Origin: Enterococcus phage VRE9_2
Length of the DNA: 64,000 nucleotides
Sequence record: PP680568.1
Reading direction: 5' to 3' (one strand)
Positions within the stretch are counted from its first letter, which is position 1, and the number at the start of each line of letters is the position of its first letter. The position numbers were made by a program, and so were the translations under genes. Below the pieces are notes generated by a model. It was not told the origin of the DNA, did no database searches, and was given only the letters and a program-made list of their open reading frames with translations. This document shows positions 531-54,890 of the stretch, piece after piece.

Positions 531-601
531 AAATACTTTTTAATATTTCTTATTTAACTTTATAATTAATTATATCATGTTGAACATAAAAAATCAAATT
601 T

Positions 602-853
602 TTAATTAGGGATAACAGCTTTACCTACAACAGCTTTTCCAACCACTGCGATTGTATCATCTGGAGTTCCATCGTCAATTGTTCGTTCAACATACCTAGT
701 TAAATCAATATCTTCACTCATTATTAGTCCATGTTTTGGACAATATAGATCTCCTGATTTATCGTCTAATTTACGATATACATTTCTCATAATTCTTTCT
801 TCATCATAACAAATCGGACAAAAATTATCAAGATTTAAATTTACTTTCATCAT
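602..853 (-). CDS. small zinc-ribbon protein with C-terminal VGKAVVGKAV repeat; paralog of 16645..16860
   Basis: CPICY...CPKHG Cys pairs; C-terminal GKA(V/I)VGKA repeat shared with the ORF at 16645. Confidence 0.5.
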   Translation of the reverse strand: MMKVNLNLDNFCPICYDEERIMRNVYRKLDDKSGDLYCPKHGLIMSEDIDLTRYVERTIDDGTPDDTIAVVGKAVVGKAVIPN

Positions 854-908
854 AAAAAATTCCTCCTTTTCTTATCTTTATAATTTAAAAAGGAGGAATC
901 ATCCATTA

Positions 909-1109
909 TTATTCATCGTCCTCAATAACTAATTCTAATTCACTAGGACTACAATTACAATATTGTTGAAAACCATGATATTTACAATTTAAAGTTTTTT
1001 CTCCATGTTCATTTTTTTCAGAATATAAACGAACTAATTTATCTTTTTCTTGCTTACATACTGGACAAAAATATTTTCTAGAATAATATCTAATCATATT
1101 ACTCACCAA
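909..1109 (-). CDS. small Cys-rich (zinc-finger-like) protein
   Basis: 66 aa with CPVC...CKYHG...CNC. Confidence 0.4.
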   Translation of the reverse strand: MVSNMIRYYSRKYFCPVCKQEKDKLVRLYSEKNEHGEKTLNCKYHGFQQYCNCSPSELELVIEDDE

Positions 1110-1359
1110 ATTCTCGTTTTAACATTAAATTAATTTGTTGAATATTAAAACCAGTTGTTAAAACTGTTCCATCTTCTCGCATTAATGCTGGTAATGATAA
1201 TACATTACCTTTTTCTACTAATTCATTATATTTTTCTGGATCTTTTTCTTTATGAACACTTACGATATGCTTGTTATATTTTTGCATATTTTTAGTTTTT
1301 AAATAACCTTCCAATTGATTACAATATGGACAATTATCTTTTGATAGTTTATAAATCAA
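1099..1359 (-). CDS. nrdH: NrdH-like glutaredoxin
   Basis: 86 aa, CPYC redox motif near N-terminus, immediately upstream of nrdI/nrdF/nrdE. Confidence 0.7.
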   Translation of the reverse strand: MIYKLSKDNCPYCNQLEGYLKTKNMQKYNKHIVSVHKEKDPEKYNELVEKGNVLSLPALMREDGTVLTTGFNIQQINLMLKREFGE

Positions 1360-1368
1360 ATTATATCA

Positions 1369-1869
1369 CTACTCCTTAATAAAATTATTAAACATTTCTA
1401 AATCTTCTTTATGCTCTTCTGGAATAAAAGTTAATTCAAACTTGATCTTAGGAATATCTTTCTCTAAAATAACTTGAATATTATCTAATGCTCCGCAGAA
1501 ATGAGTATAAATTGTAATTCCACTACCAAATAATAAAACTGGTTTGTTTATTAATACATCTCTATTAGAAATTACAAAAGATTTAATATTTTTAGGAATC
1601 TTTCCATTACTCCATGTGTAAGTTCCTATAATTATTTTATCATACTCTTCTAAATTTGTCAAGTCATCTTTTGTATTTTTTATAACAAAATTAACATTTG
1701 GATAAGTTTTTACTATAAAATCAACAAAAGTTTTTGTATTCCCAGATAAACTCTCATAAATTACAAGCACTTTAGATCCAAGAGAGAGAGATTCTATATG
1801 CGAAGGGATTGCTTTGGGCGGAGCTAATTTCACTCCACCCGTGCAAAATGTTTTTTCATTATTATCCAT
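1369..1869 (-). CDS. nrdI: NrdI flavodoxin-like RNR stimulatory protein
   Basis: LVIYESLSGNTKTFV and LLFGSGITIY...FCGA motifs resemble NrdI; operon position between nrdH and nrdF. Confidence 0.7.
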   Translation of the reverse strand: MDNNEKTFCTGGVKLAPPKAIPSHIESLSLGSKVLVIYESLSGNTKTFVDFIVKTYPNVNFVIKNTKDDLTNLEEYDKIIIGTYTWSNGKIPKNIKSFVISNRDVLINKPVLLFGSGITIYTHFCGALDNIQVILEKDIPKIKFELTFIPEEHKEDLEMFNNFIKE

Positions 1870-2912
1870 TATAATTCATCCCAATTATTTTTATCGTCTG
1901 TTGCTTTAGAATAATTTACTACACGATTTTCAAAGAAATCTGTTTTTGTATTATTGATATTATCTGAATCATAGGTCTTAATCCAAATCATTGGATTGGT
2001 TAAAGCTTCAGTATAAACTTTAGTTAAGCCCAGATTTTGTAATAGAATATTAGCACGCCATTCAATATAGTGTTCTAATTCTTCCATATCTAAAACAGCA
2101 TAATCTTTATATAAATCTCGAGCCAATTCCTGCTCAGATTTAACTACTTTATCAAAGAACGCATAAACCCAATTACTAAAATCTTCACTCTCTTGGGACG
2201 AAAGATGTAATTCAGACATAATTTGTCGTACAACTAACGTTTGGAAATAACTATGTTGTACTTCGTCACGCTGGATCAACTGAATAATTTGTCCTGTTCC
2301 TAACATTTTTTTGTTTCGATTCAATAAATAAAATGGAGTAAATCCATTTGTAAACCTAATACCTTCAAGTGCTGCCATAGCTGCTAAGGCTTTAGCCATA
2401 TTTAATCTAGTTGGAGTTTCCAAAAATGTCTCAAATGTATCTAAAATCATTTCACTTGAGCCAAGAATATATTTATCTGTTTTAGGAATTTCAAATACTT
2501 CCTTCGCTTCTTCTTTCGTCATAAAAGTAGTAGCAATATAAGTATAACTTTCATTATGAATTGATTCTTGAGAAGCGATATAAGCCATAATAGCTTTGAT
2601 AGCAGGGTTTTTAATGTACGCTGCCAATTGACCATCAATAACAGTAGAAATAGAATCTAGTAATACTAATTGAGAAATAGCTCGTTTATAAAAAGTTTTT
2701 TCAATGTCGCTCATATTATCTCGCCAATCTCTACTATCAGTATTTAACCCTACTTCTTGAGGAATCCAAAAATTTTGTTTTAGTTCTGAATATACATCAT
2801 ACCATACAGGATTTTGTTCGTCCCAATATAATAATCCAGAATGTTCTCCAAAAATTGATTCATTTGTATTTTCTGCATCTTTATTAAATAATCTAATATG
2901 TTTTTCTAACAT
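1869..2912 (-). CDS. nrdF: ribonucleotide reductase small (R2) subunit, class Ib NrdF-like
   Basis: NFWIPQEV, ESIHNESY (ExxH iron ligand), 347 aa. Confidence 0.88.
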   Translation of the reverse strand: MLEKHIRLFNKDAENTNESIFGEHSGLLYWDEQNPVWYDVYSELKQNFWIPQEVGLNTDSRDWRDNMSDIEKTFYKRAISQLVLLDSISTVIDGQLAAYIKNPAIKAIMAYIASQESIHNESYTYIATTFMTKEEAKEVFEIPKTDKYILGSSEMILDTFETFLETPTRLNMAKALAAMAALEGIRFTNGFTPFYLLNRNKKMLGTGQIIQLIQRDEVQHSYFQTLVVRQIMSELHLSSQESEDFSNWVYAFFDKVVKSEQELARDLYKDYAVLDMEELEHYIEWRANILLQNLGLTKVYTEALTNPMIWIKTYDSDNINNTKTDFFENRVVNYSKATDDKNNWDEL

Positions 2913-2931
2913 TAAAATCTTCTCCTTTATA

Positions 2932-3138
2932 TTACTCTAAATGATTTGTCCATTCATCAATTGAATCTAACCATTCAGAAAAATCATTTGTCGTTCGATT
3001 TTCATCAACAACAAAACAATCATGAAGATAACTAATAATTTCATCTTCAGTTTTATATCCTTTATTTTCAGCTTCCTCAGTAAGGTCATATAAGTTTTGA
3101 TATAAGACCTTACCATTTTCTGTAAATTTTGCTTTCAT
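2932..3138 (-). CDS. hypothetical protein
   Basis: 68-aa ORF in operon. Confidence 0.4.
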   Translation of the reverse strand: MKAKFTENGKVLYQNLYDLTEEAENKGYKTEDEIISYLHDCFVVDENRTTNDFSEWLDSIDEWTNHLE

Positions 3139-3140
3139 TT

Positions 3141-3401: not shown

Positions 3402-3480
3402 TTATTTTCCTCTTTTCTTTATCTTTATATATTTATTATATCATAATAAATAAGGAATTTCAAATAAGAAATTCCTTATT

Positions 3481-4002
3481 TTAAATTTGTTCCCAATAAT
3501 ATCCATAGGCAGATTTAATTTTTCCAGTTGCAGCACTTCTAATATTACCACTACCTTTTTTTAAAAAATCTGCAGCTTCTTTACTATTTTTAAAAATTAA
3601 AACTTCTCCTGTTTTTTTATGGGTTGCTTTTAATTTTATACTTCTTTTGTCAGCAGAAATTCTAGATCCCTTTTCAGAATTTGCTTTTGATAGTCCATTA
3701 TTATAAGCATGTTGAGTATTCTCAGATATAGTTGCCCATTCTAGGTTAGAAACAACATTATTAAGTTTATTCCCATCTTTATGGTTCACACTATATTTAT
3801 TTTCTGGATTTTCTAAAAAAGCTATTGCTACTAATCTATGAGCATAAAATTGTTGCTTCTTCCCATTCATATAGAGAGTATGTTGTCTATAGCCATGACT
3901 ATTAATTCCGCCAGATAATATTCTATTTCCTCTTTTTAGTCTGCCATAGGAGGAGATCTCATAGACCTCCCACCCCTTGACAGGCAACCATAGTTCTTTC
4001 AT
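3481..4002 (-). CDS. HNH homing endonuclease (free-standing)
   Basis: YEISSYGRL...NHKDGNKLNN...NLEWATISENTQHAYN HNH/AP2-like; start re-set to MKELWL with AAGGAG RBS overlapping nrdE stop. Confidence 0.72.
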   Translation of the reverse strand: MKELWLPVKGWEVYEISSYGRLKRGNRILSGGINSHGYRQHTLYMNGKKQQFYAHRLVAIAFLENPENKYSVNHKDGNKLNNVVSNLEWATISENTQHAYNNGLSKANSEKGSRISADKRSIKLKATHKKTGEVLIFKNSKEAADFLKKGSGNIRSAATGKIKSAYGYYWEQI

Positions 4003-4013
4003 TCTTTTTCTCC

Positions 4014-6443
4014 TTAAGAACTGCAAGCAACACAATCATCTACACGAGAAGCATCATGAGAACGGGTATAGTAAGAAGATTTAATACCTCTAGACCAAAC
4101 TTCCATATGAAGACGTAGTAAGTTTTTAACTTTAATATCGTCTAAAATATATAAATTAAATGAAGTAGATTGATCTACCCATTTTTGACGTTCTGCGTTG
4201 TGGAGAACAGCCCACATATGACCTAAATCTTTTTCTCCTTCATACTCCATCAACATGGTTGGTTTATAATAGAACCATGTTTCTAAACCTAGTTCTGGAG
4301 CAATGACAGGTGTACGAGAATCTTTCTTACCATCAAAAAAGATAGTATCGTAAACTGTATCTGCCGCTGCAGTAGAACCAGCTAATAAAGAGGTAGAACC
4401 TGTTGGAGCAACTGCTCTTAAATATCCATTCCGCATACCTTTTTTAGCTTTGAAATAAACCTCTGCTCGATAAGCATCCTCAATATCACCTTGACAAACT
4501 CCTCGATGGTCCAACCATTCTCCTGTATTCCATTGGCTTCCCTCAAATAAAGGGTAGCTTCCTTTCTCTTGGGCTAAATCTGCCGACGCCTCAATAATAT
4601 TTAACATGATTCTTTCTTCTAATCGAGCAATTAATTTAGTTGCTTCAACTGAATCAAAATGAATTCCTTGTTTAGCCAAAACTGCTGCAATACCTTGTTC
4701 ACCAATCCCAATAGCACGATAACGATTATTTGTATACTGGGCTTGTAAAACAGGTAAATTATTAACAGTAATAACTGCATCAGTAGCACGAACTTGAGTA
4801 CGTAAAACCTGTCTTAATTTTTCAAATGCCTTAACATCATCATTAGTTTGTGGTCCTTCAATGGAAAGAGTAAAATCTTTCAAAACATTGTTAAGAACAA
4901 TAGAAGATAAATTACATGTTACAAAATCTCCACTTTGTTTATGGATAATAATTTCTCCTAGTTCATTAATAGTTTCTTTAGTCATGGTTGTAGGAGATTG
5001 ATTTTGCACAATTTCAGAACATAGATTAGAACAGTATACCATCCCTACATGATTGTTAGGATTATCTCTATTTGCAGTATCCCGATAAAACATATAAGGT
5101 AAACCAGTTTCTAGTTGAGAACGCATAATTTTTTTCATAATTTCAATAGCTGGTAAACGTTTCTTTAAATGTAAATCATTATTGTCTACAGCCTTAAAAT
5201 AATGATAAGAGAAAGCGTGACGATCAGGGTCTAGGGGTGATCTTCCATCCCATTTTTCTTTATCGTAGAAATCTTCCAGAGAAAAACCTAATACTTTTTT
5301 CACTTCGTGAGGATCAAATAAATACCAGTCTCCACGTTTTTCTACTTGTTGCATGAATAAATCAGGAATAGAAGCACCTAAAAATAGTTCATGCGCTCGT
5401 TTAGATAGATCTCCTGTATTTAAACGTAACTCTAAGAAATCTTCTATATCATAATGCCAAACATCCAAATATGCTGCAATAGCACCACTACGAACTCCTA
5501 ATTGGTCTACTGAAACAGCAGTATTATTTAATTGTTTAAGCCAACCAACAATACCACCTGCAGCACCAACATTTCCTCTAATATCTGAACCAGCAGCACG
5601 AATTTTACCTACATAAATACCAATACCTCCACCAGCCTTGCTTAGGCGAGCAGCATCTGTATTATCATCATAAATCCCTTGTAAGCTATCTTCTGTTGTT
5701 AAAATAAAACAGCTAGAAAATTGTGCATCTGGTCGTCCAGCGTTTGCAAATGTTGGGGTAGCCATAGTAACTTCTTGTTTAGACAATACGTCGTATAATT
5801 CTTTTACATGTTGTAGTCTATCTTGCGTTTCTTCTCTTAATAAAGAAATTGCAATTGTCATATAACGTTCTTGTGGTAGTTCAAATACTGAACGTCCTTT
5901 ATCTTTAGCCCGAATAAGATATCTTTCAGACATATTATATAAACCAGCATAAGTCAAAAGTAAGTCTCGTTCTGGTTTAATATATTTACCTAATTCTTGA
6001 ATTTCTTCTTTAGTATATTTTACAAAAATCTCTGGTTCAATAAGACCTTGTTCACCAAGAGAAGAAAGAAGACCAAAATAGTCGCCATATTTTGAATCGA
6101 CATCATAACTTCGATTTTTTGAAGCTCGTTTATACAATGAATTTAATAATGCTCTAGCTGCCACAAATTCAAATTGTGTATTGCCTAATTTATCAAAATC
6201 CATCATTTCTCCATCTTTAAAGTCCATGATTCTGTCAATTGCATTTTGAATGATAACATCATTAATATCTCGGAAATCAATCTCTTGCCTACCCTGAATT
6301 TGTTTAATAACGCCTTTCTTATAGGCTTCAAATGTATCTGAATGAACATCCAATCCTTCTTTAAAGCTATCTAATTTATTAATTAATCGTTGTGGATCAA
6401 ATTCTAATTTTCTCAATCCATTATCTTTTATTACTACTGTCAA
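4014..6443 (-). CDS. nrdE: ribonucleotide reductase large (R1) subunit, class I NrdE/NrdA-like
   Basis: FSSCFIL, CSNLCSEI active-site motifs, C-terminal CVAC pair, N-terminal ATP-cone-like VIKDNG..FDPQRL; 809 aa. Confidence 0.88.
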   Translation of the reverse strand: MTVVIKDNGLRKLEFDPQRLINKLDSFKEGLDVHSDTFEAYKKGVIKQIQGRQEIDFRDINDVIIQNAIDRIMDFKDGEMMDFDKLGNTQFEFVAARALLNSLYKRASKNRSYDVDSKYGDYFGLLSSLGEQGLIEPEIFVKYTKEEIQELGKYIKPERDLLLTYAGLYNMSERYLIRAKDKGRSVFELPQERYMTIAISLLREETQDRLQHVKELYDVLSKQEVTMATPTFANAGRPDAQFSSCFILTTEDSLQGIYDDNTDAARLSKAGGGIGIYVGKIRAAGSDIRGNVGAAGGIVGWLKQLNNTAVSVDQLGVRSGAIAAYLDVWHYDIEDFLELRLNTGDLSKRAHELFLGASIPDLFMQQVEKRGDWYLFDPHEVKKVLGFSLEDFYDKEKWDGRSPLDPDRHAFSYHYFKAVDNNDLHLKKRLPAIEIMKKIMRSQLETGLPYMFYRDTANRDNPNNHVGMVYCSNLCSEIVQNQSPTTMTKETINELGEIIIHKQSGDFVTCNLSSIVLNNVLKDFTLSIEGPQTNDDVKAFEKLRQVLRTQVRATDAVITVNNLPVLQAQYTNNRYRAIGIGEQGIAAVLAKQGIHFDSVEATKLIARLEERIMLNIIEASADLAQEKGSYPLFEGSQWNTGEWLDHRGVCQGDIEDAYRAEVYFKAKKGMRNGYLRAVAPTGSTSLLAGSTAAADTVYDTIFFDGKKDSRTPVIAPELGLETWFYYKPTMLMEYEGEKDLGHMWAVLHNAERQKWVDQSTSFNLYILDDIKVKNLLRLHMEVWSRGIKSSYYTRSHDASRVDDCVACSS

Positions 6444-9444: not shown

Positions 9445-9672
9445 TAAAATTTCCTCCTTATTTAACTTTATAATTAATTATATCATCCTTAATAAAAAAA
9501 GTCAATAATTATCTCGCCAAACACCCTTTATTTTTTTTCGTGCTTTTTGTCTAGTTAATGGATACCATTGTTCACTTTTAGCTTTTTTTAAAATTTGAGC
9601 TTCAATTGGAATCCATCTACCATCACTATCTTTTCTATATATTAACATATTACTCTCTCCCTGTCAAGTAAA

Positions 9673-16061: not shown

Positions 16062-16268
16062 TTAAAATCCGCTCCTATTTTTTATTATCAATTCATTTTC
16101 TATAATATAATTATAACAAATTGAACTAACTTTTTCAAATTGTGTGTTTACATAAGCTATCTGACTTTTTGTTTCTTTCATTTAACTTATAATTAATTAT
16201 ATCATTTAATATATAAAAACTCAAATAAAAAATCCCAATCATCTAGATTGGGATTAATTTTAAATAAT

Positions 16269-16956: not shown

Positions 16957-18828
16957 TTATTCTTTTACTTCGCCAGTTAATAAGAAGTCAATGAATTCTT
17001 TATTAATAGGACTGTCTCCAGTCAAACGGAATTCAAAAGAACTATCTTCAAGAGGCTCCCATGAAAAACCTAAAGAATCTAAAATAATTTTAGTTTTTAA
17101 TTGAAATTCTTCTTCTCGATTTTCACATTTGAAAATATAATCCTTTAGAATTTCAAAACAATCTTTTTTAGATGTACCTAATTCTTGATACTTTTTGAAA
17201 ATTTTATTCATTTTCCAAGCTTCATCAAGAATGTTTGGTAGTTCCTGAGAAAAGATTTCTTTCCATTCATCAGAATCAATATCTTCTGTATTTTCATGAT
17301 ATTTTCCGTCAACTTTCCAAATAAAGCAATCATGGATACAAGCAGTTACTCCATTTGATAATTCTACAACATCTTCTTGAAGCATATAACTATCAAGAGT
17401 TTCGCACCATGCAGCATCAGAAGTTAAGAGATATTCTTCTAAATGATCTGAGTAAGTAGCATCTTTTGTATAAACCCAAGAATCTTCTTTGGAGCCAATC
17501 GCATGAACTGCTTCTTCTCCCCAAATATTTTCTCCTTCTTTGGTAGACCAAATGGTTTCTTCTCCACAGCATTCACAAACATAGACAATATCTCCAAAAG
17601 TATCTAATACTCGAACACCATAATCTTCATCAAAACGTTCTTCACAAGATGGACAAATTGATCTTGAACCATAGTAACATTCTTCACAAAGCCCTGAACA
17701 ATTTGCAGGATCATCTTTAGAACCACATTCGAGACAAACAAAGGCGCTTTGTGCATTAATTGGGATAGTTTTGCCTTCTTCCGCCTGAAAAAGAACAGGA
17801 GATCGTAAACCTCGAATTGCATCATTCCAGTTGAAAGCATCTACATAACCATATTCATTACAATCTGAACCATTTCTCCAACGAAAACGAGTTAAATTTT
17901 CTTCAATTTGGTTAATTTTCGCATTACCTTCCCAACCCAATAAAGATAAGGTTGCATTACTAATCATATTTTGTAATCCATTATTCAAACGGGGATATCC
18001 TTTTTGAGATAAAAGAACTGGAACAGTTTCTTCTTCATAGTCAACTTCAGAAACGAACATCATTTGACGCCATACTTTTGGAGCTAAATAACCAAACTCT
18101 TCTAAATCTTTTTCCATTACAGTAAAACCAACAAAAGCATCTGGTCCAACCATGTAACCTAGTGTACCATTATTATATTCACCTTCGTCAGGGTGCATAC
18201 ATGAACGCCAGCTATTTCCATAACTAATTAAGAATAAATCTTCTGGTCTGATAGATAGAACAATTTTTCGTCCATCAAAATTTGCCCCTGATGCAAAACT
18301 AGCCATTTCTCCACCAACAATTTTATTTTTAATGTCAGAAACCGCTTCTTTTAATTTCCTAGTTGAAGAAACGTTTTGAGCAGACAATACTGACATATCA
18401 ACTAAAGAGTTTAAAACTTTAGTTAAACGTTGTCCATGGAAAGGTAACATTTTGAATTCATCTTTCATAATTACCTTTTTATTTTCAACTCTGATTTTGT
18501 CAAAAGTATTATAAACTGATGTTTTAAAAACGTCAATGAAATTATAAGAAATATCCAAGTCACGTAAATCAGAATATAATCCATCATCTACATAATTTTT
18601 CATTTCTTCAAATGAAAATTCTTCCATGAAATCTTTGAAATCTTTAGGATCTAAGACAATCCTTCCATTTGTTCCATCAAAGATTTTTTGTAGGTAAGAG
18701 TTTTTCATTTCCATTCCTTTTGCATAATAATCTAAATATTGTGAGTCTGATAATGAGCCCCACTCATAAAATTCATTAAAGATTTCTTTTAAATTTGCTT
18801 TAACCTCTTCAACGCTATAATTTAACAT
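16957..18828 (-). CDS. member C of W-x-SC paralog family; large Cys-rich protein
   Basis: LSIRPEDLFLISYGNSWRSCMHP..GEYNNG...KVWRQMMFV...LSQKGYPRLNNG core; multiple CxxC pairs (CLECG, CEEC, CPSCE, CECCG). Confidence 0.55.
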   Translation of the reverse strand: MLNYSVEEVKANLKEIFNEFYEWGSLSDSQYLDYYAKGMEMKNSYLQKIFDGTNGRIVLDPKDFKDFMEEFSFEEMKNYVDDGLYSDLRDLDISYNFIDVFKTSVYNTFDKIRVENKKVIMKDEFKMLPFHGQRLTKVLNSLVDMSVLSAQNVSSTRKLKEAVSDIKNKIVGGEMASFASGANFDGRKIVLSIRPEDLFLISYGNSWRSCMHPDEGEYNNGTLGYMVGPDAFVGFTVMEKDLEEFGYLAPKVWRQMMFVSEVDYEEETVPVLLSQKGYPRLNNGLQNMISNATLSLLGWEGNAKINQIEENLTRFRWRNGSDCNEYGYVDAFNWNDAIRGLRSPVLFQAEEGKTIPINAQSAFVCLECGSKDDPANCSGLCEECYYGSRSICPSCEERFDEDYGVRVLDTFGDIVYVCECCGEETIWSTKEGENIWGEEAVHAIGSKEDSWVYTKDATYSDHLEEYLLTSDAAWCETLDSYMLQEDVVELSNGVTACIHDCFIWKVDGKYHENTEDIDSDEWKEIFSQELPNILDEAWKMNKIFKKYQELGTSKKDCFEILKDYIFKCENREEEFQLKTKIILDSLGFSWEPLEDSSFEFRLTGDSPINKEFIDFLLTGEVKE

Positions 18829-18844
18829 AAATGAAAAACTCCCT

Positions 18845-18895
18845 TTCTTTAACTTATATAAATATTATATCATTTTAAAAATTACTTTTCAAATA
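18845..18895 (-). promoter_or_regulatory. minus-strand promoter for 16957..18828 (TTGAAA-17-TATAAT, TGaTATAAT extended -10)
   Basis: reverse complement reads ttgaaaagtaatttttaaaatgaTATAATatttatataagttaaagaaagggag then ATG. Confidence 0.5.
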
Positions 18896-19198: not shown

Positions 19199-19228
19199 TT
19201 GACTTTTTGATTATTATATGTTATAATT
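19199..19228 (+). promoter_or_regulatory. second tandem consensus promoter TTGACT-17-TATAAT
   Basis: ttgactttttgattattatatgttataat. Confidence 0.55.
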
Positions 19229-19277
19229 AATCATAAAGATAAATAAAGAATTAAAATTTGAAGGAGTGTATTTTTAA

Positions 19278-19646
19278 ATGAAAGAAGAAATTATTAAAAA
19301 ATTTATGAACGCCTTAAACATTTCAAGAGAAGCAGCTTTGGAGTTATATGATTATGATGAACGAGTAGAAAAAAGTAATAAGCCTGTAGAAGGGGAAATT
19401 GTAGTTAAAAAGGTTCCTAAAACTTCAAAGAAAAAAGGTATTCAAAAAGAAGAATTAGATGCAATGAAAGATTTGTTATCTAAAATGTTTCCGAATGGAG
19501 AAGAGTTTAAAAATAGTCAATTATCTCCATTATGTGAAGAATTAAACTTAACTAATAGACAGACTCCTTCAAGATTAAAAGCATTAAAAGAAGAAGGTTT
19601 CTTAGAAGACTTAGGTGGTTCACCTAAAAAATATAAGGTTAAATAA
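19278..19646 (+). CDS. small protein, TPxxL..KKYKVK-tail family (putative winged-helix DNA/RNA-binding)
   Basis: C-terminal NRQTPSRLKALKEEGFLEDLGGSPKKYKVK nearly identical to the tail of the ORF at 60924. Confidence 0.55.
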   Translation: MKEEIIKKFMNALNISREAALELYDYDERVEKSNKPVEGEIVVKKVPKTSKKKGIQKEELDAMKDLLSKMFPNGEEFKNSQLSPLCEELNLTNRQTPSRLKALKEEGFLEDLGGSPKKYKVK

Positions 19647-21771: not shown

Positions 21772-22809
21772 TAACTATAAAAAGTTCTCTTTAAAAAACT
21801 TAAAGGCTCACGTAAAACAGGATAAATTGCGGGAACATCCTAAAGTTCTTAACTACTAAGCAAATATAGTGATATATTTGTGGCTGAACTAATCACTCAG
21901 GTATAGTAAAAAGGTTAAGAAATTGGACAATCCGCAGCGATACCTCTCATTAGAGAGAGACGTTCAACGACTATAAACCTGCTCTGGCTTAATTTTAAGC
22001 TAAATGTATAGTCTAGTCCGAGATAATATGTAGTATAATAGGAGTTGTTACAGTATAGATTTTTATGTATACATTCATTATACTAAAGATACAAAAGAAA
22101 TATTTTATGTAGGTAAGGGTATAAATAACAGAGCTTATTCAAAAGTTAAACGAAATAAGTTTTGGTGGAATATTGTTAATAAGCATGATTATTGCTTAAA
22201 AATTTTATATTCAAATTTATCAGAAGAAAAGGCTTTCCTTTTAGAGAAGGAATTAATTAAAAATCTAAAAGCTATTGGATTAGCAAAAGCAAACTTCCAT
22301 GAAGGAGGTTCAGGAGGAAATACAATGAAATACGCCCCTCTTGGAGAAATCCAAAAGTGGAAAGAAAGTTTATGCTCCGCTCAACAAAATTTAGATTTAG
22401 AAACTAGACAAAGATTAAGTCAAATTCGTAGTCTAAATGTAAGCGGAGATAAAAATCCTCAATTTAATAAGCCTGGATTTAATACAGGTCGCAAATTTTC
22501 TGATGAACATAAAAATAAAATTAGCAATGCTTTAAAACAATATTCTATGACAGAAGAACACAAACAAAATATAACAAAATCACACAACAAATATCTATTA
22601 AAGGTTATTACAGATAATGGAGAAGAAATGATTTTTAGTTCTCTAAAGGAAGCTTCTGAAACACTAGGAGTTCCTAAGACTACATTATCTAGTTGTGGAC
22701 ATGGAAATAATGGCAGAAACAAAACCCATTATTCTTCCAAATATAAACTTACTGCATATTATCTAACATAAGTATCCCGAAAGGGACGGTAGATTCGATT
22801 TATCCTTTG
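21772..22809 (+). mobile_element. group I (IA-like) self-splicing intron in nrdD carrying a GIY-YIG homing endonuclease ORF
   Basis: core elements read in sequence: P AATTGCGGGAA (21825-21835), Q AATCCGCAGC (21929-21938), R GTTCAACGACTA (21962-21973), S ATAGTC (22008-22013); intron ends in G (22809); joining 21771 to 22810 gives ...TRVCG-Y-QIHGDSRYNPGKQKEVKERVKHNFK*. Confidence 0.78.
22055..22771 (+). CDS. intron-encoded GIY-YIG homing endonuclease (I-TevI/I-TevII-like) with NUMOD-type C-terminal repeats; start codon non-canonical or uncertain
   Basis: frame open from 22034: ..DFYVYIHYTKDTKEIFYVGKG...RAYSKVKRNKFWWN (GIY...YIG...R...N), later GRKFSDEHKNKISNALK NUMOD-like; no in-frame ATG/GTG/TTG before 22325; TAGGAG RBS at 22039-22044 then ATA at 22055. 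Confidence 0.65.
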   Translation: MDFYVYIHYTKDTKEIFYVGKGINNRAYSKVKRNKFWWNIVNKHDYCLKILYSNLSEEKAFLLEKELIKNLKAIGLAKANFHEGGSGGNTMKYAPLGEIQKWKESLCSAQQNLDLETRQRLSQIRSLNVSGDKNPQFNKPGFNTGRKFSDEHKNKISNALKQYSMTEEHKQNITKSHNKYLLKVITDNGEEMIFSSLKEASETLGVPKTTLSSCGHGNNGRNKTHYSSKYKLTAYYLT

Positions 22810-34315: not shown

Positions 34316-34388
34316 AAAGGTATTCTTTAATTGAAATTATTAATTTAAAATGATATAATTAATTATAAAGTTAAATAAGGAGATAAAA

Positions 34389-34841
34389 ATGATAGAATTA
34401 GCTTCTCATATTGTAGATTTGAGTTTAGAACATAAAAAATATATTTATCAATTACAGTTACAAAAAATAACATATTATACTGTATTACAAGGGTTAAAAT
34501 TAAATTTAATAGATAAAGATACACTTAAAGAATTATATAAATATGAGTCTGGTAGATTTACACCATCAAGATATGGTCCACGATCTGAAATTATATTCCT
34601 TCGATACTGTGTGTTTGGAGCGGAAAGGATTTTTACCAATTCTTTTAACAATTCTTATCTAAGAGATATGGATTTTTCCCACTTAAATTCTATTATTCTT
34701 CCTCTTTTGGAAGAACAGACAATGGATTTATGTAGAAAAAGTATGAAAAATCCTATTTTTGAAGAACGATTTAAAGATAATAAAGAACTTAGTATTGAAG
34801 ATATATTTGAACTTAGCGAAAAATATTCAGATTTGAAATAA
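34389..34841 (+). CDS. hypothetical protein
   Basis: 150 aa; conserved promoter-leader directly upstream. Confidence 0.45.
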   Translation: MIELASHIVDLSLEHKKYIYQLQLQKITYYTVLQGLKLNLIDKDTLKELYKYESGRFTPSRYGPRSEIIFLRYCVFGAERIFTNSFNNSYLRDMDFSHLNSIILPLLEEQTMDLCRKSMKNPIFEERFKDNKELSIEDIFELSEKYSDLK

Positions 34842-34894
34842 AAAATATAAAATGATATAATTAATTATAAAGTTAAATAAGGAGGAAATTTTAA

Positions 34895-35425
34895 ATGAAA
34901 AAAAGTTTAGTAGGGTTTTCAATTATTGCAATGTTTGGTTTAGGTTTGGCAGGATGTGCTAAAGGAGAAGTTCCTGATGCACAATGGAAAAGTGAAGATT
35001 CTACTGAACAGACAGTAGAAAGTAGCACAGTAGAATCGTCTGAACAAAAAGAACCTTATAAAAAAGATGAAGTTCAATTATCTACGCTAGAACAACAAGT
35101 TTTAGATGCTTTTCAACAAAGTTTTCAGTCAACAGGTCCAGTTCGTTTTGATTCTGTAAACAAATATTATATTATTACACCAACAGATCCTCAATTTACG
35201 CAAGAAATGGCAGCTATTATGGATGGCACATTAAGTTTAGACACATGGACTAATTTAGTTCAAAATGTTCAACAAACATCTTTAGGTTTACAAGATACTC
35301 TTGGTAGTGGATATACAATTATTATTGAAAATCCATTTGAAACAGGTCAAATGTTTTTGGCTGTAAGTGATGGAGAAGTTGTTTTTGATGGTTTGACAGA
35401 ATATATGACTGGTCAAAACACATAA
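34895..35425 (+). CDS. lipoprotein
   Basis: MKKSLVGFSIIAMFGLGLAGC signal peptide plus lipobox; conserved promoter-leader upstream. Confidence 0.6.
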   Translation: MKKSLVGFSIIAMFGLGLAGCAKGEVPDAQWKSEDSTEQTVESSTVESSEQKEPYKKDEVQLSTLEQQVLDAFQQSFQSTGPVRFDSVNKYYIITPTDPQFTQEMAAIMDGTLSLDTWTNLVQNVQQTSLGLQDTLGSGYTIIIENPFETGQMFLAVSDGEVVFDGLTEYMTGQNT

Positions 35426-35905: not shown

Positions 35906-36026
35906 GTTAAATAGGGACTAGAGCTAATTTATTTTAGCCAGTCCTTATCCCGAAAGGGAAAAATAATTTGACATTTTGAACATAATATGTTATAATTATT
36001 ATATAATAAAGATAAGAAATATAAAA

Positions 36027-36098
36027 CGGCTTGTTGGTCAAGAAGTTAAGACGCTCGACTTTCACTCGGGAATCACAGGTGCAAATCCTGTACAAGTC
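36027..36098 (+). tRNA. tRNA-Glu (UUC)
   Basis: manual fold: acceptor 7 bp, AC stem ctcga/tcggg, loop cuUUCac, T-loop TGCAAAT. Confidence 0.7.
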
Positions 36099-36188
36099 AT
36101 TAACATTATTTGAAAAAAATCTTTCAAAATGTTATAATTAATATGTAAAAAGAAATAAAAAAAATTATTTTAAAAGGAGAGGTTCATC

Positions 36189-36581
36189 ATGGAAAAACAA
36201 ACTAAAGCAGATATGTATCGTAATGCAGCAAAATTGTTGGAAGTAAATGCTCCTGAATATGCAGAAATGTTATTGGAAGATGCTCAAAGAATTGAAGCTC
36301 GTAACGCAAGTCGTCGAAATGTTGATACCAAAGTTCAAAAAGAAAATAAACACATCGCTGCTTTAGTAATTGAGTTTTTCCATAATGATGCTGAAGATGG
36401 AATCGCTTATGACAGTGGTGAAATTGCAAATGCAGTTGGGATCGAAGTTTCTCCTCAGAAAATGTCAGCAATTATGCGTTTAGTTGGGGATGAAGTAGAT
36501 AAAATGAACCAAGCTACGAATAATAAAGATCATGTTGGATATAAAAAGAAAGGAACTGAATTAGTTCCTGATGAAAAATAG
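36189..36581 (+). CDS. small protein, TPxxL..KKYKVK-tail family
   Basis: N-terminus MEKQTKADMYRNAAKLLEVNAPEYAEML like the ORFs at 57477 and 63003; tail SPQKMSAIMRLVGDEVDKMNQATNNKDHVGYKKKG. Confidence 0.55.
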   Translation: MEKQTKADMYRNAAKLLEVNAPEYAEMLLEDAQRIEARNASRRNVDTKVQKENKHIAALVIEFFHNDAEDGIAYDSGEIANAVGIEVSPQKMSAIMRLVGDEVDKMNQATNNKDHVGYKKKGTELVPDEK

Positions 36582-37032: not shown

Positions 37033-37089
37033 TAAAGAATCTTACAGCAAATATTAATACTTTTAATAATATTTGGGAAAAAATAAGGT

Positions 37090-39903: not shown

Positions 39904-39993
39904 AACTCCCTAAGATAGGGAGTTTTTTATTTGAAAAATTTAATTTAAAATGATATAATTAATTATAAGGACAAATAAAAAGGAGATTCAAAA

Positions 39994-41113: not shown

Positions 41114-41378
41114 GGTATTTGTACTTTTATTATTAAATGGAGGAGTTATATTAGCAACGATTGGTTTAATTTTTCTTATTATTGCTACAATTTTATCTAT
41201 TAAGTCAAGTGTTAGAGAAAAATATATCAATATAATTATTAAATTTTATTATATTGCAGGTATACTTTATATTATTTCAGCCTTTTTCTCTTTCGAAATT
41301 TTAACTATATTTTTAAAAGTTTTAGTTGGATTAATATGCTTATATAATGTTTATCTAATCAAAAAAAATAAAAATTGA
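41112..41378 (+). CDS. hypothetical membrane protein
   Basis: 88 aa, three hydrophobic segments. Confidence 0.45.
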   Translation: MVFVLLLLNGGVILATIGLIFLIIATILSIKSSVREKYINIIIKFYYIAGILYIISAFFSFEILTIFLKVLVGLICLYNVYLIKKNKN

Positions 41379-41439
41379 CTTTTTTAGCATAACATGTTAT
41401 AATATTTATATAAGTTAGGAAGAAAAAACTTCCTAATAT

Positions 41440-41511: not shown

Positions 41512-41516
41512 TTCAC

Positions 41517-43579: not shown

Positions 43580-43697
43580 CATTAATCCAGCCCAGGAAAG
43601 TGCCAATATTATATTCGCTCTCTTGGGCTTTTCATATTTGAAAAAATATATTAATCATGTTATAATTAATTATAAAGTTAATTAAGAATTTTAAAAG

Positions 43698-43772: not shown

Positions 43773-43799
43773 TTTAAATAAAAAGGGGTCGATAATAAA

Positions 43800-44096
43800 A
43801 TGGACAAAGAAAAAATTAAAGAATCTTGGAACTATTGTTTAGCCCAAAGTATTGGAGTTAGAAAATTAGCTTCTAAAAATGAAGCTATTAGAAAAGATAG
43901 TTTAGAAAAAAACATTGCTACTAAAACTGCCTTAGAAGTTTTAAAAGAGCAATTAAATGTTTTAATTGAGATGCTGGAGAAAATTGATTTAGAAGAAGAA
44001 CTTCTCTTAACTTGTCAAGAGAAAGCTGCGGTAGAGTATCTTATTGAAGTATATGAAAATCTTATTATTGTGAAAGAGGGGGAGCAACTTGACTAA
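43800..44096 (+). CDS. hypothetical protein
   Basis: 98-aa ORF. Confidence 0.45.
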   Translation: MDKEKIKESWNYCLAQSIGVRKLASKNEAIRKDSLEKNIATKTALEVLKEQLNVLIEMLEKIDLEEELLLTCQEKAAVEYLIEVYENLIIVKEGEQLD

Positions 44097-45250: not shown

Positions 45251-45260
45251 GCTTTTTTTC
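45235..45260 (+). terminator. rho-independent terminator
   Basis: AAGCCCgttaaataGGGCTT followed by T7. Confidence 0.6.
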
Positions 45261-45323
45261 TTGACTTTATTTGATATACATGTTATAATATAAGTATAAT
45301 AAAAAATAAGGAGGAATATCACA

Positions 45324-45635
45324 TTGTCAGATAAAACTAATACAGTAGATGTTGAATATTTAACATATTGGAAACTAACTCCAACAGAAAAAGATAGGTT
45401 AAAAACAGATTATGGTATTTCTAGAAATAAAGCTAAATATGATATTAATAAACATATAATCGTACCGCAGCCAGTAAATGCGGAAGATTTAGATTTCTTT
45501 CCTGGTGAATTCGTAGCTTCTTTTGTTATCTATGAAGGACAAAATTATCCGGTATTTTTAAAAATTAATGATCCTAATGAATACGTTGATTTACCGATTG
45601 AATCAACTCCAAAAGGAGATGAGTTAATTGATTAA
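45324..45635 (+). CDS. hypothetical protein
   Basis: 103 aa, AAGGAGG RBS, TTG start. Confidence 0.45.
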   Translation: MSDKTNTVDVEYLTYWKLTPTEKDRLKTDYGISRNKAKYDINKHIIVPQPVNAEDLDFFPGEFVASFVIYEGQNYPVFLKINDPNEYVDLPIESTPKGDELID

Positions 45636-45855: not shown

Positions 45856-45974
45856 CCTATGCTACCCTTTTTTGATTTTTTGTAAATAAAATGGTATAAT
45901 TAATTATAAAGTTAAATAAGAAATCCTTCCTTTTTCATAGAGAGTATAAGATAATATAGAAAAGGAGGGATTAT

Positions 45975-46229
45975 ATGGCTATTAGAAAAGATTATAATTG
46001 GCTTTCTAGTGAATCTAATAAGAAAGCACTAGAAGAAAAACTTTCTTTCTTCAAAGAAAAAACTGGTCTTGATATAAAACATTATTACGATAAAGGAAAC
46101 TTTTGTTCTGGTTTTGCTCATGACCATGTAGTAATAGAAGCAAATAAGAAAATTTTTGCTATTTCAGACGATAAAACTATTTATATTAATAGAAATAATA
46201 ATTGGGAGGTCTTTAAATATGAAAGTTAG
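45975..46229 (+). CDS. hypothetical protein
   Basis: 84 aa; conserved promoter-leader at 45885-45925. Confidence 0.45.
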   Translation: MAIRKDYNWLSSESNKKALEEKLSFFKEKTGLDIKHYYDKGNFCSGFAHDHVVIEANKKIFAISDDKTIYINRNNNWEVFKYES

Positions 46230-47979: not shown

Positions 47980-48107
47980 ACTTTCTGACCCCCCTTCTAC
48001 TGAAATAGAAAAAAATTAGGACAGTTTGTCTTGAGATACCCATTTGATTTTTTATATATATCATGATATAATTAATTATAAAGTTAAATAAGGAGGATAA
48101 ACAGTAA

Positions 48108-48662
48108 ATGATATTTTTTATTATAGTATTTGCTGCAATATTTGTCAATATGTACCGACGTGGACGAAAAGTAATTGACAAAGAAGACCAGGGCGTAACC
48201 TTTTTATTTTCTGTCGCTATTGGAAGTATATTTCAAGCTACTGCTATTGCTTTAGTAGCTATATTCATAACATTAAGTTATTATAAAATAACTAATAGTT
48301 ATGAATTATCTATGGTAGTTACTCCATTAACATATATTAATTCAGAGCAAGATTATATAGTTCATAAAGATGGAGAATCAGATGAAATTGATTTTTATAC
48401 CTTTGCTACATTAGATGTAGATGGGAATACAAAGTTATATAAAAACATTCAAATGAATGAAAATACTGATGTTGTTATAGATAATAAAACAAAAAGACCA
48501 CGATTAGAAAGAGCAGTAGGTTTAATTCCATCAACTCCATGGACATATATTATAAGTTTAAATCGTAAAGAAGCTACTACTATTGGTTATAAATTAATAG
48601 TGCCAGAAGGAACTGTTATAGAAATGCACGAACAGGAGGAATTAGATGCGGGTAGAAAATAA
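48108..48662 (+). CDS. membrane protein
   Basis: two N-terminal TM segments; conserved promoter-leader upstream. Confidence 0.45.
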   Translation: MIFFIIVFAAIFVNMYRRGRKVIDKEDQGVTFLFSVAIGSIFQATAIALVAIFITLSYYKITNSYELSMVVTPLTYINSEQDYIVHKDGESDEIDFYTFATLDVDGNTKLYKNIQMNENTDVVIDNKTKRPRLERAVGLIPSTPWTYIISLNRKEATTIGYKLIVPEGTVIEMHEQEELDAGRK

Positions 48663-49037: not shown

Positions 49038-49112
49038 GAGTGACTCTTAGTTGATTTTTCTTTTTTAAAATGATATAATTAATATATAAGGAAATGAAAT
49101 GGAGAGAAGAAA

Positions 49113-49616
49113 ATGAATTTTTTAGATTTTATTTTTAAGAAATTAAACCCCAAAAAAGCACAAACAAAAAATATTTATTTAAATAAAGAGGGTAGAGATT
49201 TAATAGTTAAATTATATACCGAAACAGAAAATGAAAATGATATTACGTTTAGAAAAATATTTCATTATGAAATAAATTTATTAGAATATGGGTTAGAAAT
49301 TTCTAAAATAGAAGAAACTTTTACTTATTTTCGACTAGAATCGGAAGAAGACAAAAATAAAGCTATCCGAGCTATTGCTTCGGGATATTTTTATCCAGGA
49401 GTTATTGTTGGGAAACAAGAAGACAATCCTTATATTAAAAATAAACTAAGAGAATTAGCTTATGAAAACGAACGACTAGAAAGATTCCATTGGGCTTTAT
49501 ATAATACAGAAATTTCTGGAGTTCTTGATATTGAACTTGAGAAGAAATTTAAAAATATTGATGACCCAGATAATCAAAATATAGATTCTGTTGGATTTTT
49601 ATTTTGGAATAAATAG
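49113..49616 (+). CDS. hypothetical protein
   Basis: 167 aa. Confidence 0.45.
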   Translation: MNFLDFIFKKLNPKKAQTKNIYLNKEGRDLIVKLYTETENENDITFRKIFHYEINLLEYGLEISKIEETFTYFRLESEEDKNKAIRAIASGYFYPGVIVGKQEDNPYIKNKLRELAYENERLERFHWALYNTEISGVLDIELEKKFKNIDDPDNQNIDSVGFLFWNK

Positions 49617-52776: not shown

Positions 52777-53093
52777 CAGAAGAGGATGACAAAATATAGT
52801 GAAAACTGTACGGACTATATAAACCTTCTATATTAAATATAGAGTACGAAGAGCTATATTAGAAATTTTTCGAGACATATTTCTCGCACTTGAAAGTACT
52901 TTTGAAGACATATTTCGCGATTAAGTAATATATAGCGTTCCCTTCGGGAACGTAAATAATAGCCTTATATTTTACTCACTTCGTTCGTAAAATATAAGGT
53001 ACTGGGCGGCTTCGTACGTGGTGATTCTTATTTGAAATTTTTAGTTTTGCGTGCTATAATTAATTATAAAGTTAAATAAGAAGGGATTGAAAA

Positions 53094-53441
53094 ATGTTGA
53101 GGAAATATTTTATTGATTCGTTGTTGGGTAGTGTGCCACGAGTTCGTGGTAGAAAGAGAATTATTTTTTATATTGAGAACGATAGTGCATTGGAAGAAGA
53201 TTTATTGGAAGCCTTACAAGAATCTAAGTACGATGTTAAATGGCAATCTGGTGTTTCCCCAACACTTTTTAGTGCTATTAAAATGAATGGTTCAATTGCA
53301 ATTTCTTGTACCGAGAGAGAATCAATGGATAGTTTTATATTAACTTATTATGATTTAAATTCTGTTTTTTCTTGCGACCACGAAGAAGTTTCTCGTAGAC
53401 TTCATTATAGGCTTTTTGCTAGAACTTGGAGGGGTAAATGA
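53094..53441 (+). CDS. hypothetical protein
   Basis: 115 aa; conserved promoter-leader at 53050-53090. Confidence 0.45.
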   Translation: MLRKYFIDSLLGSVPRVRGRKRIIFYIENDSALEEDLLEALQESKYDVKWQSGVSPTLFSAIKMNGSIAISCTERESMDSFILTYYDLNSVFSCDHEEVSRRLHYRLFARTWRGK

Positions 53442-53442
53442 T

Positions 53443-53760
53443 ATGAGTATGTTACAATATTATTTGTCGAATTTATTGAAGCAATGCCGAGAAGATGGTA
53501 TTTTTTATATACAGTTTGATGTAGGTAATAATAGAAATGTAATGAAAAAACTATTAGCTTCGCTTATGACAATGGAAGGATACAATATTACTTGGGGTGG
53601 CTCAGGAGATCCTCTTATAAATTATTGTCCTGTTATTGCTCAGACAATTGTCCTAGTTAAAGAGAATACTATATTCACAACTTGTGTTATCAATCATGAT
53701 GACGATTATTCTGTATATGTTCCATTTCATTTAATAAGTAAAGTATTGGAGGAAGGATAA
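53443..53760 (+). CDS. hypothetical protein
   Basis: start at MSMLQYY after GGAGGGG. Confidence 0.45.
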   Translation: MSMLQYYLSNLLKQCREDGIFYIQFDVGNNRNVMKKLLASLMTMEGYNITWGGSGDPLINYCPVIAQTIVLVKENTIFTTCVINHDDDYSVYVPFHLISKVLEEG

Positions 53761-53999
53761 TGGCAATTAAGATAGTAGGACCGATTAAAGAATTAACGGA
53801 GAATGAAGATCTTGTATGTTGGGTTTCTCCTACAATGGATGTTTTTAAAGGTAAGATTTTTCAAAAAGAGGATTTTACTAAAGTGGAAACTTGGAGTGGT
53901 ATAAACACATATATTCCTAAGTCTGGTGGCTTTACTTATGCAAAAAGATGGGTCTTGGACACAGAAGATATTAGGTCTGATTGGTTCAAACACGAGTAA
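53760..53999 (+). CDS. hypothetical protein
   Basis: 79 aa, coupled. Confidence 0.4.
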   Translation: MAIKIVGPIKELTENEDLVCWVSPTMDVFKGKIFQKEDFTKVETWSGINTYIPKSGGFTYAKRWVLDTEDIRSDWFKHE

Positions 54000-54176
54000 A
54001 ATCCTCCGTTTTGGTAAAAAAATAAGGAAAAATAAAAAAGAAAAAATCCGTGTGATAGACGGTTAAGACGCACAAAACCTAGCCTAGAGGACACATTAGA
54101 CGGGAAAATATACGAAAAATTATTCGAGGGCGTCGAAAAATCTTAATATTGAAGAGGAAATTCTCGAAATTGAAAT

Positions 54177-54263
54177 GGAAACCCTCGATAAACTTCAAAA
54201 ACCCTCAATGTTGAGATAAAGATTATTGAAAACCCTCAATGTTAAAATGAAAACCCTCAATGT
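54177..54263 (+). repeat. direct repeats AAAACCCTCAATGTT x3 (plus a degenerate 4th copy)
   Basis: copies at 54198, 54229, 54249; degenerate GAAACCCTCGATAAA at 54177. Confidence 0.65.
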
Positions 54264-54353
54264 TGTGTGGCACCCTCCAGTCTCAGTTTAACGCAAGGCT
54301 AGCCCCGTCCTCCCTTATAACAAACACGACGATACGCGACAAACCTAGAAAGG

Positions 54354-54716
54354 ATGATTTATTTGAGTAAACAGCTTAAAATGGCAGTAATTCAAAGTGA
54401 CGAAATGATATGTTATTTTGATGATGAAACTAGAGAGGTTCAGCGTTATAGTGATATATGGAATATAGATCGAATGAGGCTCCACGTAATTAAACAGGGC
54501 GCCACCTTCGTATGTGCAGTATCGACTCCTAGTGGTTATATAAGAGAATATTATGTTAATAACAAGCCAAAAGTGCAGAGTATATCTATGAACGAGCTAT
54601 TCAAATCTGGTGTCGACAACATTGGACTGGCCCAGCCCCACAATCCATGGAGAGAAGACAAGCCCCAAACAGAGAGCCGCCTAGATGAGAATGCTTACTC
54701 CTCTCTCTCTTGGTAG
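54354..54716 (+). CDS. hypothetical protein (GC-richer island)
   Basis: 120 aa; composition differs from flanks; start uncertain. Confidence 0.4.
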   Translation: MIYLSKQLKMAVIQSDEMICYFDDETREVQRYSDIWNIDRMRLHVIKQGATFVCAVSTPSGYIREYYVNNKPKVQSISMNELFKSGVDNIGLAQPHNPWREDKPQTESRLDENAYSSLSW

Positions 54717-54890
54717 ACACCATTTGAAAAATTATATTCATAATGATATAATTAATATATAAATGAGATATGAAAAATAAATAAAAACATAGGGGGCGGA
54801 CATATCCCCCTAGTTTACTCCCCCAGTTTCGGGAGGAGCATTTAGGATTTTCAATTTTCGTTTTTCAATTTTGAAAGGGGATTTTAGATT

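Follow-up and report, generated by a model that had tools for sequence, protein, structure and literature searches.

A repeated promoter-leader element in Enterococcus phage VRE9_2 and its probable use by the host sigma-A polymerase

In the stretch of 64,000 nucleotides of Enterococcus phage VRE9_2 analyzed here (sequence record PP680568.1; hereafter "the window"), a promoter-like element followed by a conserved leader recurs upstream of small open reading frames (ORFs) and tRNA genes. A previous sequence-only reading had listed 18 sites and, having noticed no obvious -35, had assigned them to a middle- or late-class promoter recognized by a modified polymerase. The questions raised by this locus are which polymerase reads the repeat and why the sequence following the -10 is so strongly conserved. 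Our analysis relied on the anatomy of the copies, their statistics, genomic distribution and conservation, and one recombination junction. It makes it very probable that the repeat is a family of near-perfect host-type sigma-A promoters, provided with a -35 and serving early or pre-late genes, DNA-metabolism genes and tRNA genes. Host-type early promoters are a well-known phage strategy; the repeat is not a new polymerase signal and adds nothing conceptually new.

Anatomy and distribution of the repeated promoters

The 32-mer TGnTATAATTAATTATAAAGTTAAATAAGGAG has eight copies in the window at three or fewer mismatches, against 0.00 expected (546-577 and 9454-9485 on the minus strand; 34351, 34853, 43658, 45892, 48064 and 53052 on the plus strand). 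Its 21-nt core TATAATTAATTATAAAGTTAA has eleven at the same threshold, against 0.13 expected, the core search adding three variants (16181-16201 on the minus strand; 19222 and 39954 on the plus strand). These eleven long-leader copies are referred to as family A and are designated 574, 9482 and 16201 on the minus strand and 19222, 34354, 34856, 39954, 43661, 45895, 48067 and 53055 on the plus strand; the eight near-exact ones are called master copies. Reading 45 nt upstream of each copy revealed TTGAnn exactly 17 bp 5' of TATAAT in every case, and the presence of TTGA at this distance in all the eleven family-A copies has a chance probability of about 1e-24. The strict pattern TTGA-N16-TGnTATAAT occurs at 30 sites of the window against 0.04 expected, whereas a loose -35/-10 scan is uninformative in such an AT-rich sequence (113 found, 106 expected), so that the strict pattern alone discriminates. 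The consensus of all 30 strict sites is essentially the 32-mer; family A is not an element apart but lies at the centre of a wider family. The copies thus combine a TTGACA-like -35 (here mostly TTGAAA or TTGATT, not TTGACA), an exact 17-bp spacer, TGnTATAAT and a co-oriented placement 5' of genes, that is, the features of a sigma-A promoter with an extended -10.

As a consequence, the premise that no -35 exists is false, and the inference of a modified polymerase fails with it. Other parts of the sequence-only reading fared differently. Each of the 18 listed sites is real, at no more than about 6 nt from the stated position, and is a consensus promoter, but the long leader is confined to the eleven family-A copies; what the listed sites without it (49074, 54747, 18869, 35450, 35991, 36133, 41398 and 45284) have in common is limited to the promoter and TATAA(A)G close to +1. 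The description as a promoter in which an extended -10 is followed by a short leader of conserved sequence, mostly with a strong Shine-Dalgarno (SD) sequence, is supported. The fixed spacing claimed for the SD and the start codon is not: the SD is fused to the conserved sequence in only five of the eight near-exact copies, the gap between AAGGAG and the start codon ranges from 6 to 12 nt in the four copies carrying AAGGAG (34354, 34856, 48067 and 9482), and copy 53055 has AAGAAGGG in place of AAGGAG. Moreover, the leader is 45 nt long at copy 574 and 80 nt long at copy 45895, and copy 43661 drives a tRNA-Cys. Finally, catgTTATAAT had been placed before tRNAs at five sites; this is correct for three of them (35450 before the tRNA at 35475-35550, 35991 before tRNA-Glu and 41398 before tRNA-Arg), while 36133 and 45284 precede ORFs.

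The placement of the sites is in agreement with a promoter function. All 30 strict sites are intergenic and oriented as the local genes; they lie on the plus strand between about 19 and about 56 kb and on the minus strand on either side, switching together with the GC skew. At most sites 32-59 nt separate the -10 from the start codon or the tRNA, and the genes downstream are small ORFs, nucleotide-metabolism and replication genes, and tRNAs. At eight sites a strong hairpin (at or below -10 kcal/mol) is located upstream, its T-tract merging into the -35. Many copies therefore abut a terminator hairpin and can be regarded as self-contained terminator/promoter/leader cassettes.

The phage has close relatives, at about 94% identity, in the large Enterococcus phages VRE9_3, VRE9_4, EF1, EF5 and H1 (134-142 kb). 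This EF1-like group consists of unclassified Caudoviricetes with an 8-kb tape-measure gene and a siphovirus-type genome, does not belong to the Herelleviridae, and might represent an undescribed family (PMC10607447); we found no paper on the transcription of EF1-like phages. The base composition of the window is 30% G+C, and it contains 17-19 tRNA genes. In the complete VRE9_3 genome, 46 of the 47 TTGA-N19-TATAAT sites fall within 51-131.5 kb, the non-structural region with its tRNA and small-ORF genes and those for replication and nucleotide metabolism. No sense-oriented site occurs in the structural and lysis module of VRE9_3, and the consensus is missing from the intergenic regions of this module. 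This distribution suggests that the promoters would be early or pre-late, and not late. A gene labelled "sigma factor" (131590-132609), at the head of the structural module, has its own sigma-A-type promoter, the last VRE9_3 site being located immediately 5' of it. The gene matches PHROG 5767 (E = 8e-102) and has no match in Pfam, NCBIfam or the PDB sequences; the label should be taken as a lead only.

The same data bear on the idea of a middle or late promoter that lacks a -35 and is read by a phage sigma factor or by a polymerase that the phage has modified. Some late promoters of phages do typically have a long extended -10, as in the late Kayvirus motif TGTTATATTA. However, with TTGAnn at 17 bp in every copy, with tRNAs, nucleotide-metabolism genes and small ORFs as targets, with no sites in the VRE9_3 structural module and with no phage RNA polymerase domain detected among the large ORFs of the window, we consider this idea hardly credible.

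A different motif, CCAAGAGAGCAA, is moderately enriched in the window (16 matches at two or fewer mismatches, 4.25 expected). Its positions include 19119-19130, 43615-43626, 52181-52192 and 59130-59141, and several opposite-strand -35 boxes have a copy directly adjoining them or about 12 nt upstream. CCAAGAG occurs 20-30 nt 5' of the SD of several VRE9_3 structural genes, and CCAAGAGAGCAA/CCAAGAG could be a late-promoter element.

The conserved block downstream of the -10

In the eight master copies the sequence from -12 to about +14 (TATAAT-TAATTATAAAGTTAAATAAG; hereafter "the block") is identical, while the n of TGn, the spacer, the last two bases of the -35 and the sequence beyond AAG/+14 vary. 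The ORFs downstream of these copies are mutually unrelated and belong to PHROG families all of unknown function. Given the variable spacers and flanks and the unrelated downstream ORFs, the master copies are not recent duplicates of a gene together with its promoter, an explanation that we rejected.

The comparison of orthologous promoters of the window and VRE9_3 yielded substitution rates of 7.4% in the spacer, 6.4% in the UP region, 4.0% in the discriminator, 3.3% in the -35, 3.0% in the initial transcribed sequence and 1.7% in the -10, with p=0.007 for the initial transcribed sequence against the spacer. Considering the master copies only, one of 160 leader positions changed with respect to VRE9_3, against seven of 136 in the spacer (p=0.026).

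These rates are relevant to the possibility that the identity of the copies is not selected and goes back to a promoter cassette that was recently copied or spread by gene conversion, i.e., to the concerted evolution of a mobile regulatory repeat. Promoter-to-promoter recombination is clear in the hairpin class described below, deletions mediated by short repeats have occurred in the lineage, and Sak4-like and RecJ-like recombination proteins are annotated in this phage group. However, the identity breaks off abruptly at the -10, and the copies differ at the n of TGn, along the spacer, at the two final bases of the -35 and past +14, a pattern not expected of conversion tracts. Besides, the block is constant between genomes while its flanks diverge, and the comparisons with VRE9_3 and VRE9_4 revealed no indel with master copies at both ends. 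An origin of the identity by copying alone therefore appears quite unlikely.

The exact motif was found in only five genomes of the phage database, all EF1-like, with 10-13 occurrences each. Metagenome and genome scans revealed the exact 26-mer at the orthologous promoter of contigs whose genes are only 66-77% identical, one of these distant contigs (139 kb) being binned with a Carnobacterium metagenome-assembled genome (MAG). Though biased by the way in which these contigs were found, such conservation would be hard to obtain in the absence of constraint. The possibility that the element was copied from a host promoter was discarded: among 185,579 genomes, the exact 23-mer matched only the 139-kb phage-like contig of the Carnobacterium MAG and no Enterococcus chromosome. 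A search for further relatives through the DUF2828 protein retrieved very distant loci only, with no informative promoters.

As to the function of the block, it is maintained where no SD directly follows, that is, at copy 43661 (tRNA-Cys), at position 2516 of contig L012 (tRNA-Glu) and in the long leaders at 574 and 45895, which argues for a role in transcription rather than, or besides, translation. It is possible, but rather doubtful, that the leader acts mainly as RNA, either as a translational enhancer or as a 5' stabilizer that positions a strong SD about 15 nt or less from the 5' end. SD-like 5' stabilizers are known from Bacillus, phage SP82 and cryIIIA; in five copies AAGGAG(G) or AAGAAGGG is fused directly to the block, the leader is A-rich and unpaired, and similar short purine-rich leaders exist in other low-GC phages. 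Nevertheless, the block is equally conserved at the two tRNA promoters, where the leader is removed, and where the SD lies 45-80 nt downstream (574 and 45895). The proposal of a translational enhancer or of a site for an RNA-binding protein, also contained in the sequence-only reading, is weakened by this equal conservation and by the lack of RNA structure: the block RNA is predicted to be unpaired, with folding z-scores near 0. Known RNA families or structures were likewise rejected, Rfam recognizing tRNAs only. The sequence TAAAGTTAA equals the T7 "epsilon" translational enhancer in reverse complement; we regard this as coincidental and mechanistically meaningless.

In the 80-nt leader transcribed from promoter 45895, the SD GAAAAGGAGGGATT of ORF 45975..46229 is paired with AAATCCTTCCTTTTTC in a predicted hairpin (45921-45972; z = -2.1, about -20 kcal/mol), which suggests a possible translational control.

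Purines make up 73% of the initial transcribed sequence and 56% of the sense-strand background. The mechanism that we consider most likely extends the sigma-A reading as follows. The unmodified Enterococcus sigma-A holoenzyme would bind TTGAnn, the 17-bp A/T-rich spacer, TGnTATAAT and the A/T discriminator with no help from the phage, and would probably start at an A located about 6-8 nt 3' of the -10. The block would be part of the promoter proper, consisting of the discriminator and the purine-rich initial transcribed sequence, which together might allow efficient initiation and clearance from a consensus promoter that would otherwise bind the polymerase too tightly. Where a protein gene follows, the short unstructured 5' leader would place a strong SD (AAGGAGG) near the 5' end of the mRNA, and the upstream terminator hairpins might insulate small transcription units.

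Quite different is the idea that the block is a DNA or nascent-RNA site for a phage regulator superimposed on the sigma-A promoter, for instance an early shut-off repressor, an antiterminator loading site, or the site of a translational repressor or nuclease. Besides the identity of the block next to a variable spacer and its slower evolution, this idea is favored by a perfect 14-bp palindrome, TATAATTAATTATA, which spans the -10 and +1 and has 12 copies against 0.38 expected, and by a phage-encoded 76-aa Cro/CI-type helix-turn-helix (HTH) protein (26083-26313). As an operator common to the whole family, however, the palindrome was rejected: it is real, but the other promoter subfamilies lack it and have only TATAA(A)G near +1. 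The block also shows no RNA structure, no evidence ties any regulator to these sites, and the same generic theme is found in unrelated low-GC phages, which points to the host machinery and not to a lineage-specific factor. Indeed, scanning viral contigs for the promoter plus TAATTATAA returned about 60 unrelated contigs, with one match each, followed by differing short purine-rich leaders and an SD, and the unrelated Enterococcus phage EFDG1 exhibits a TATA(A/C)T-N5-(G/A)TAAG-ATAAA-SD theme. In its general lines the promoter-leader design is thus widespread in low-GC phages, on which the polymerase and ribosome of the host probably impose it, whereas the exact AGTTAAATAAG is specific to this lineage. 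On the whole, a regulator site of this kind seems unlikely. Only a slim chance, too, can be given to its more restricted form, in which a phage factor acting on some of the early units would specifically recognize the block, either as a shut-off operator (the palindrome) or as a promoter-proximal loading or pause site for switch-off or terminator read-through.

Two further observations may be added. The 690-bp stretch 3' of the HTH gene (26314-27002) has no convincing ORF and no significant Rfam match, and carries a consensus-like promoter at 26370, near its beginning. The left-end early region of EFDG1 (1678-4700) possesses a promoter repeat family of its own, in which the conserved part is the spacer (TTGACATTAAACAATAAA) and not the transcribed region.

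Some points weigh against the sigma-A reading and should be kept in mind. The rate comparison is based on small counts from a single unbiased genome pair, and the distant contigs were retrieved through the motif itself, which introduces an ascertainment bias in their conservation. Exact identity over 26 nt in eight copies is tighter than the usual selection on promoter strength; T5 early promoters, for example, are alike but not identical. Together with the perfect palindrome within the block, this leaves room for a sequence-specific reader. In addition, it is from sequence that we infer the transcription start site and the temporal class for this phage group, as well as the escape and leader functions of the block, and the VRE9_3 "sigma factor", the would-be explanation of late transcription, is known by its PHROG label alone.

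Hairpin-embedded promoters and neighboring features

The promoters of the small-ORF region at 60-63.6 kb have the -35 (TTGACA or TTGACT) at the apex of a strong hairpin. In five of them the hairpin across the -35 reaches -13 to -18 kcal/mol, with z-scores from -3.2 to -5.7. The 10-mer AAGGGTTGAC recurs here at 60145, 60499, 60932 and 61397, about 350-450 bp apart; the hairpin and promoter scan of these sites covers the promoters at 60117, 60471 and 60904. The gene 60498..60878 lies between the promoters 60471 and 60904. VRE9_3 lacks this gene and has a single chimeric promoter instead, made of the upstream half of 60904 and the downstream half of 60471 joined exactly at the shared TTGAC. At promoter 62170 the homology with VRE9_3 stops at the -10. 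From its sequence, the junction looks like a recombination between promoter-early stem-loop (PeSL)-type cassettes in a Gram-positive phage, and gene cassettes are probably also gained and lost through recombination at such promoters, at least at the hairpin-embedded ones. An enrichment of breakpoints at promoters could not be separated from the intergenic baseline.

The 4.8-kb deletion of VRE9_4 makes use of a different repeat and not of promoter copies. The 21-nt direct repeat AAAGAATCTTACAGCAAATAT, located at 37034-37054 and 41866-41886 just 3' of two tRNA or tRNA-like ends, bounds the segment with about 10 tRNAs and the ORFs 39066-41378 that is precisely missing in VRE9_4.

The promoter sites and their context are collected in Table 1.

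Table 1. Promoter sites of the window and adjoining features.
Feature	Position	Strand	Context
Family A	546..597	-	-35 TTGATT, 17-bp spacer, TGATATAAT, invariant TAATTATAAAGTTAAATAAG; 45-nt leader to ORF 129..530
Family A, exact 32-mer	9454..9505	-	-35 TTGACT; SD fused to block; GTG start at 9444
Family-A variant, 1-nt leader deletion	16173..16224	-	After terminator hairpin; in tandem with promoter at 16115
Related consensus promoter, subfamily B (ATTTATATAAGTTAAAG)	18841..18892	-	5' of ORF 16957..18828
Family-A variant (TAATCATAAAGATAAATAAAG)	19199..19250	+	Divergent strand-switch region; 5' of ORF 19278..19646
Family A, exact 32-mer	34331..34382	+	-35 TTGAAA; abuts terminator hairpin 34297-34332; 5' of ORF 34389..34841
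Family A, exact 32-mer	34833..34884	+	5' of ORF 34895..35425
Consensus promoter cATGTTATAAT, -35 TTGAAA	35427..35474	+	Drives tRNA 35475-35550
Perfect TTGACA-17-TGTTATAAT	35968..36027	+	Drives tRNA-Glu 36028-36099
Consensus promoter	36110..36188	+	5' of ORF 36189..36581, no tRNA; VRE9_3 indel boundary at its -35
Family-A variant (TAATTATAAGGACAAATAAAAAGGAG)	39931..39982	+	After terminator 39902-39926; orthologous copies of relatives nearer consensus
Consensus promoter	41375..41438	+	Drives tRNA-Arg and tRNA-Ile (41439-41592)
Family A, 1 block mismatch, no SD	43638..43689	+	Drives tRNA-Cys 43699-43772
Consensus promoter	45261..45323	+	After terminator 45235-45254; 5' of ORF 45324..45635
Family A	45872..45923	+	After terminator 45849-45868; 80-nt leader with SD-sequestering hairpin 45921-45972 (predicted); ORF 45975..46229
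Family A, exact 32-mer	48044..48095	+	5' of ORF 48108..48662
Related consensus promoter (TAATATATAAGGAAATG leader)	49051..49102	+	After terminator 49028-49056; ORF 49113..49616
Family A (TGC; SD AAGAAGGG)	53032..53083	+	5' of ORF 53094..53441
Related consensus promoter	54724..54775	+	144-nt distance to ORF 54891..56060
TTGAC promoter array, -35 in hairpin apex	60100..61400	-	Shown for 60117, 60471, 60904; each 5' of a small ORF
Hairpin-embedded -35 promoter	62155..62205	-	VRE9_3 homology ends at its -10
Hairpin-embedded -35 promoter	63566..63620	-	TTGACA-17-TATAAT without TG

Further features of the window emerged from the comparison with VRE9_3 and from the search for RNAs. The segments 3489-4022, 21770-22802, 35581-35868 and 43774-44060 are present in the window and absent from VRE9_3. 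Their ORFs (3481..4035, 22325..22771 and 43800..44096) are located beside or inside ribonucleotide reductase genes, or after the tRNA-Cys, and the segments may be insertions of the homing-endonuclease type. The tRNA at 35475-35550, recognized by Rfam (41.8 bits) and not called by ARAGORN, has its own consensus promoter (35427-35455). Similarly, a 57-nt tRNA-like element at 41804-41860 (Rfam tRNA, 42 bits) was missed by ARAGORN. It lies just upstream of the gene (41975-43471) for a 498-aa protein with DUF2828, DUF7788 and vWA domains, annotated in the relatives as "RNA-binding protein". The two may form a Ro/Y-RNA-like pair.

Significance and comparison with known systems

The large Enterococcus phages of this group, poorly studied candidates for therapy against vancomycin-resistant enterococci, now have a promoter map comprising about 30 sites over 64 kb, and the attractive interpretation of a modified polymerase is corrected. 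The promoter and its leader form a compact and very strong cassette that might serve to express genes in enterococci. An initial transcribed region that is conserved exactly, tRNA promoters included, offers a natural test case for the effect of this region on the output of consensus promoters in Gram-positive bacteria. Lastly, the chimeric junction would extend the PeSL idea, i.e., recombination at regulatory cassettes, from T4-type phages to a phage of Gram-positive bacteria.

Early promoters of the sigma-70/sigma-A type are found in other large phages of Firmicutes, the host-takeover module of SPO1 being one case. In the Kayvirus vB_SauM-515A1, RNA-seq mapped 58 early TTGACW-17-TRTGN-TATANT promoters controlling 81% of the genes, together with a few late promoters, devoid of a -35 (PMC7698491). 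The two systems resemble each other in having dozens of near-consensus promoters for most non-structural genes, often paired with Rho-independent terminators, while late genes use another signal. They differ in that the phages studied here are EF1-like and not Herelleviridae, contain a subfamily with an exact 20-nt block 3' of the -10, and usually have TTGAAA or TTGATT as the -35; moreover, the Kayvirus promoters were mapped by RNA-seq, whereas those of the window are predicted from sequence.

A second comparison concerns the T5 N25 promoter, which is near-consensus and escape-limited, and in which a purine-rich initial transcribed sequence supports productive initiation (PMC12464699; PMC5961368). 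Its initial transcribed sequence ATAAATTTGAGAGAGGAG and ATAAAGTTAAATAAGGAGG are identical at 13 of 19 positions, and both promoters have a near-consensus core, an A/T-rich spacer and a purine-rich ATAAA start running into a GGAG SD. The host polymerase is, however, a different one, the resemblance is short and could be compositional, and escape is only predicted for the VRE9_2 promoters.

The closest parallel for the cassette organization is offered by the PeSL cassettes of T4-type phages (PMC2839356, PMC4122927). The likeness includes the recurrence, 5' of small ORFs without known function, of a composite in which an AT-rich upstream region is combined with a host consensus promoter, a stem-loop and an SD; the stem-loop of some copies extends over the -35, and a gene between two cassettes is replaced by one chimeric cassette in a relative. 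On the other hand, the host is Gram-positive, the phage lineage is unrelated, the stem-loop of the master subfamily is a separate upstream terminator, and cassette recombination was seen in the hairpin class only. Since the phage belongs to an EF1-like and not to a T4-type lineage, we regard its promoter cassettes as an analogue of the PeSL system, not as a member of it.

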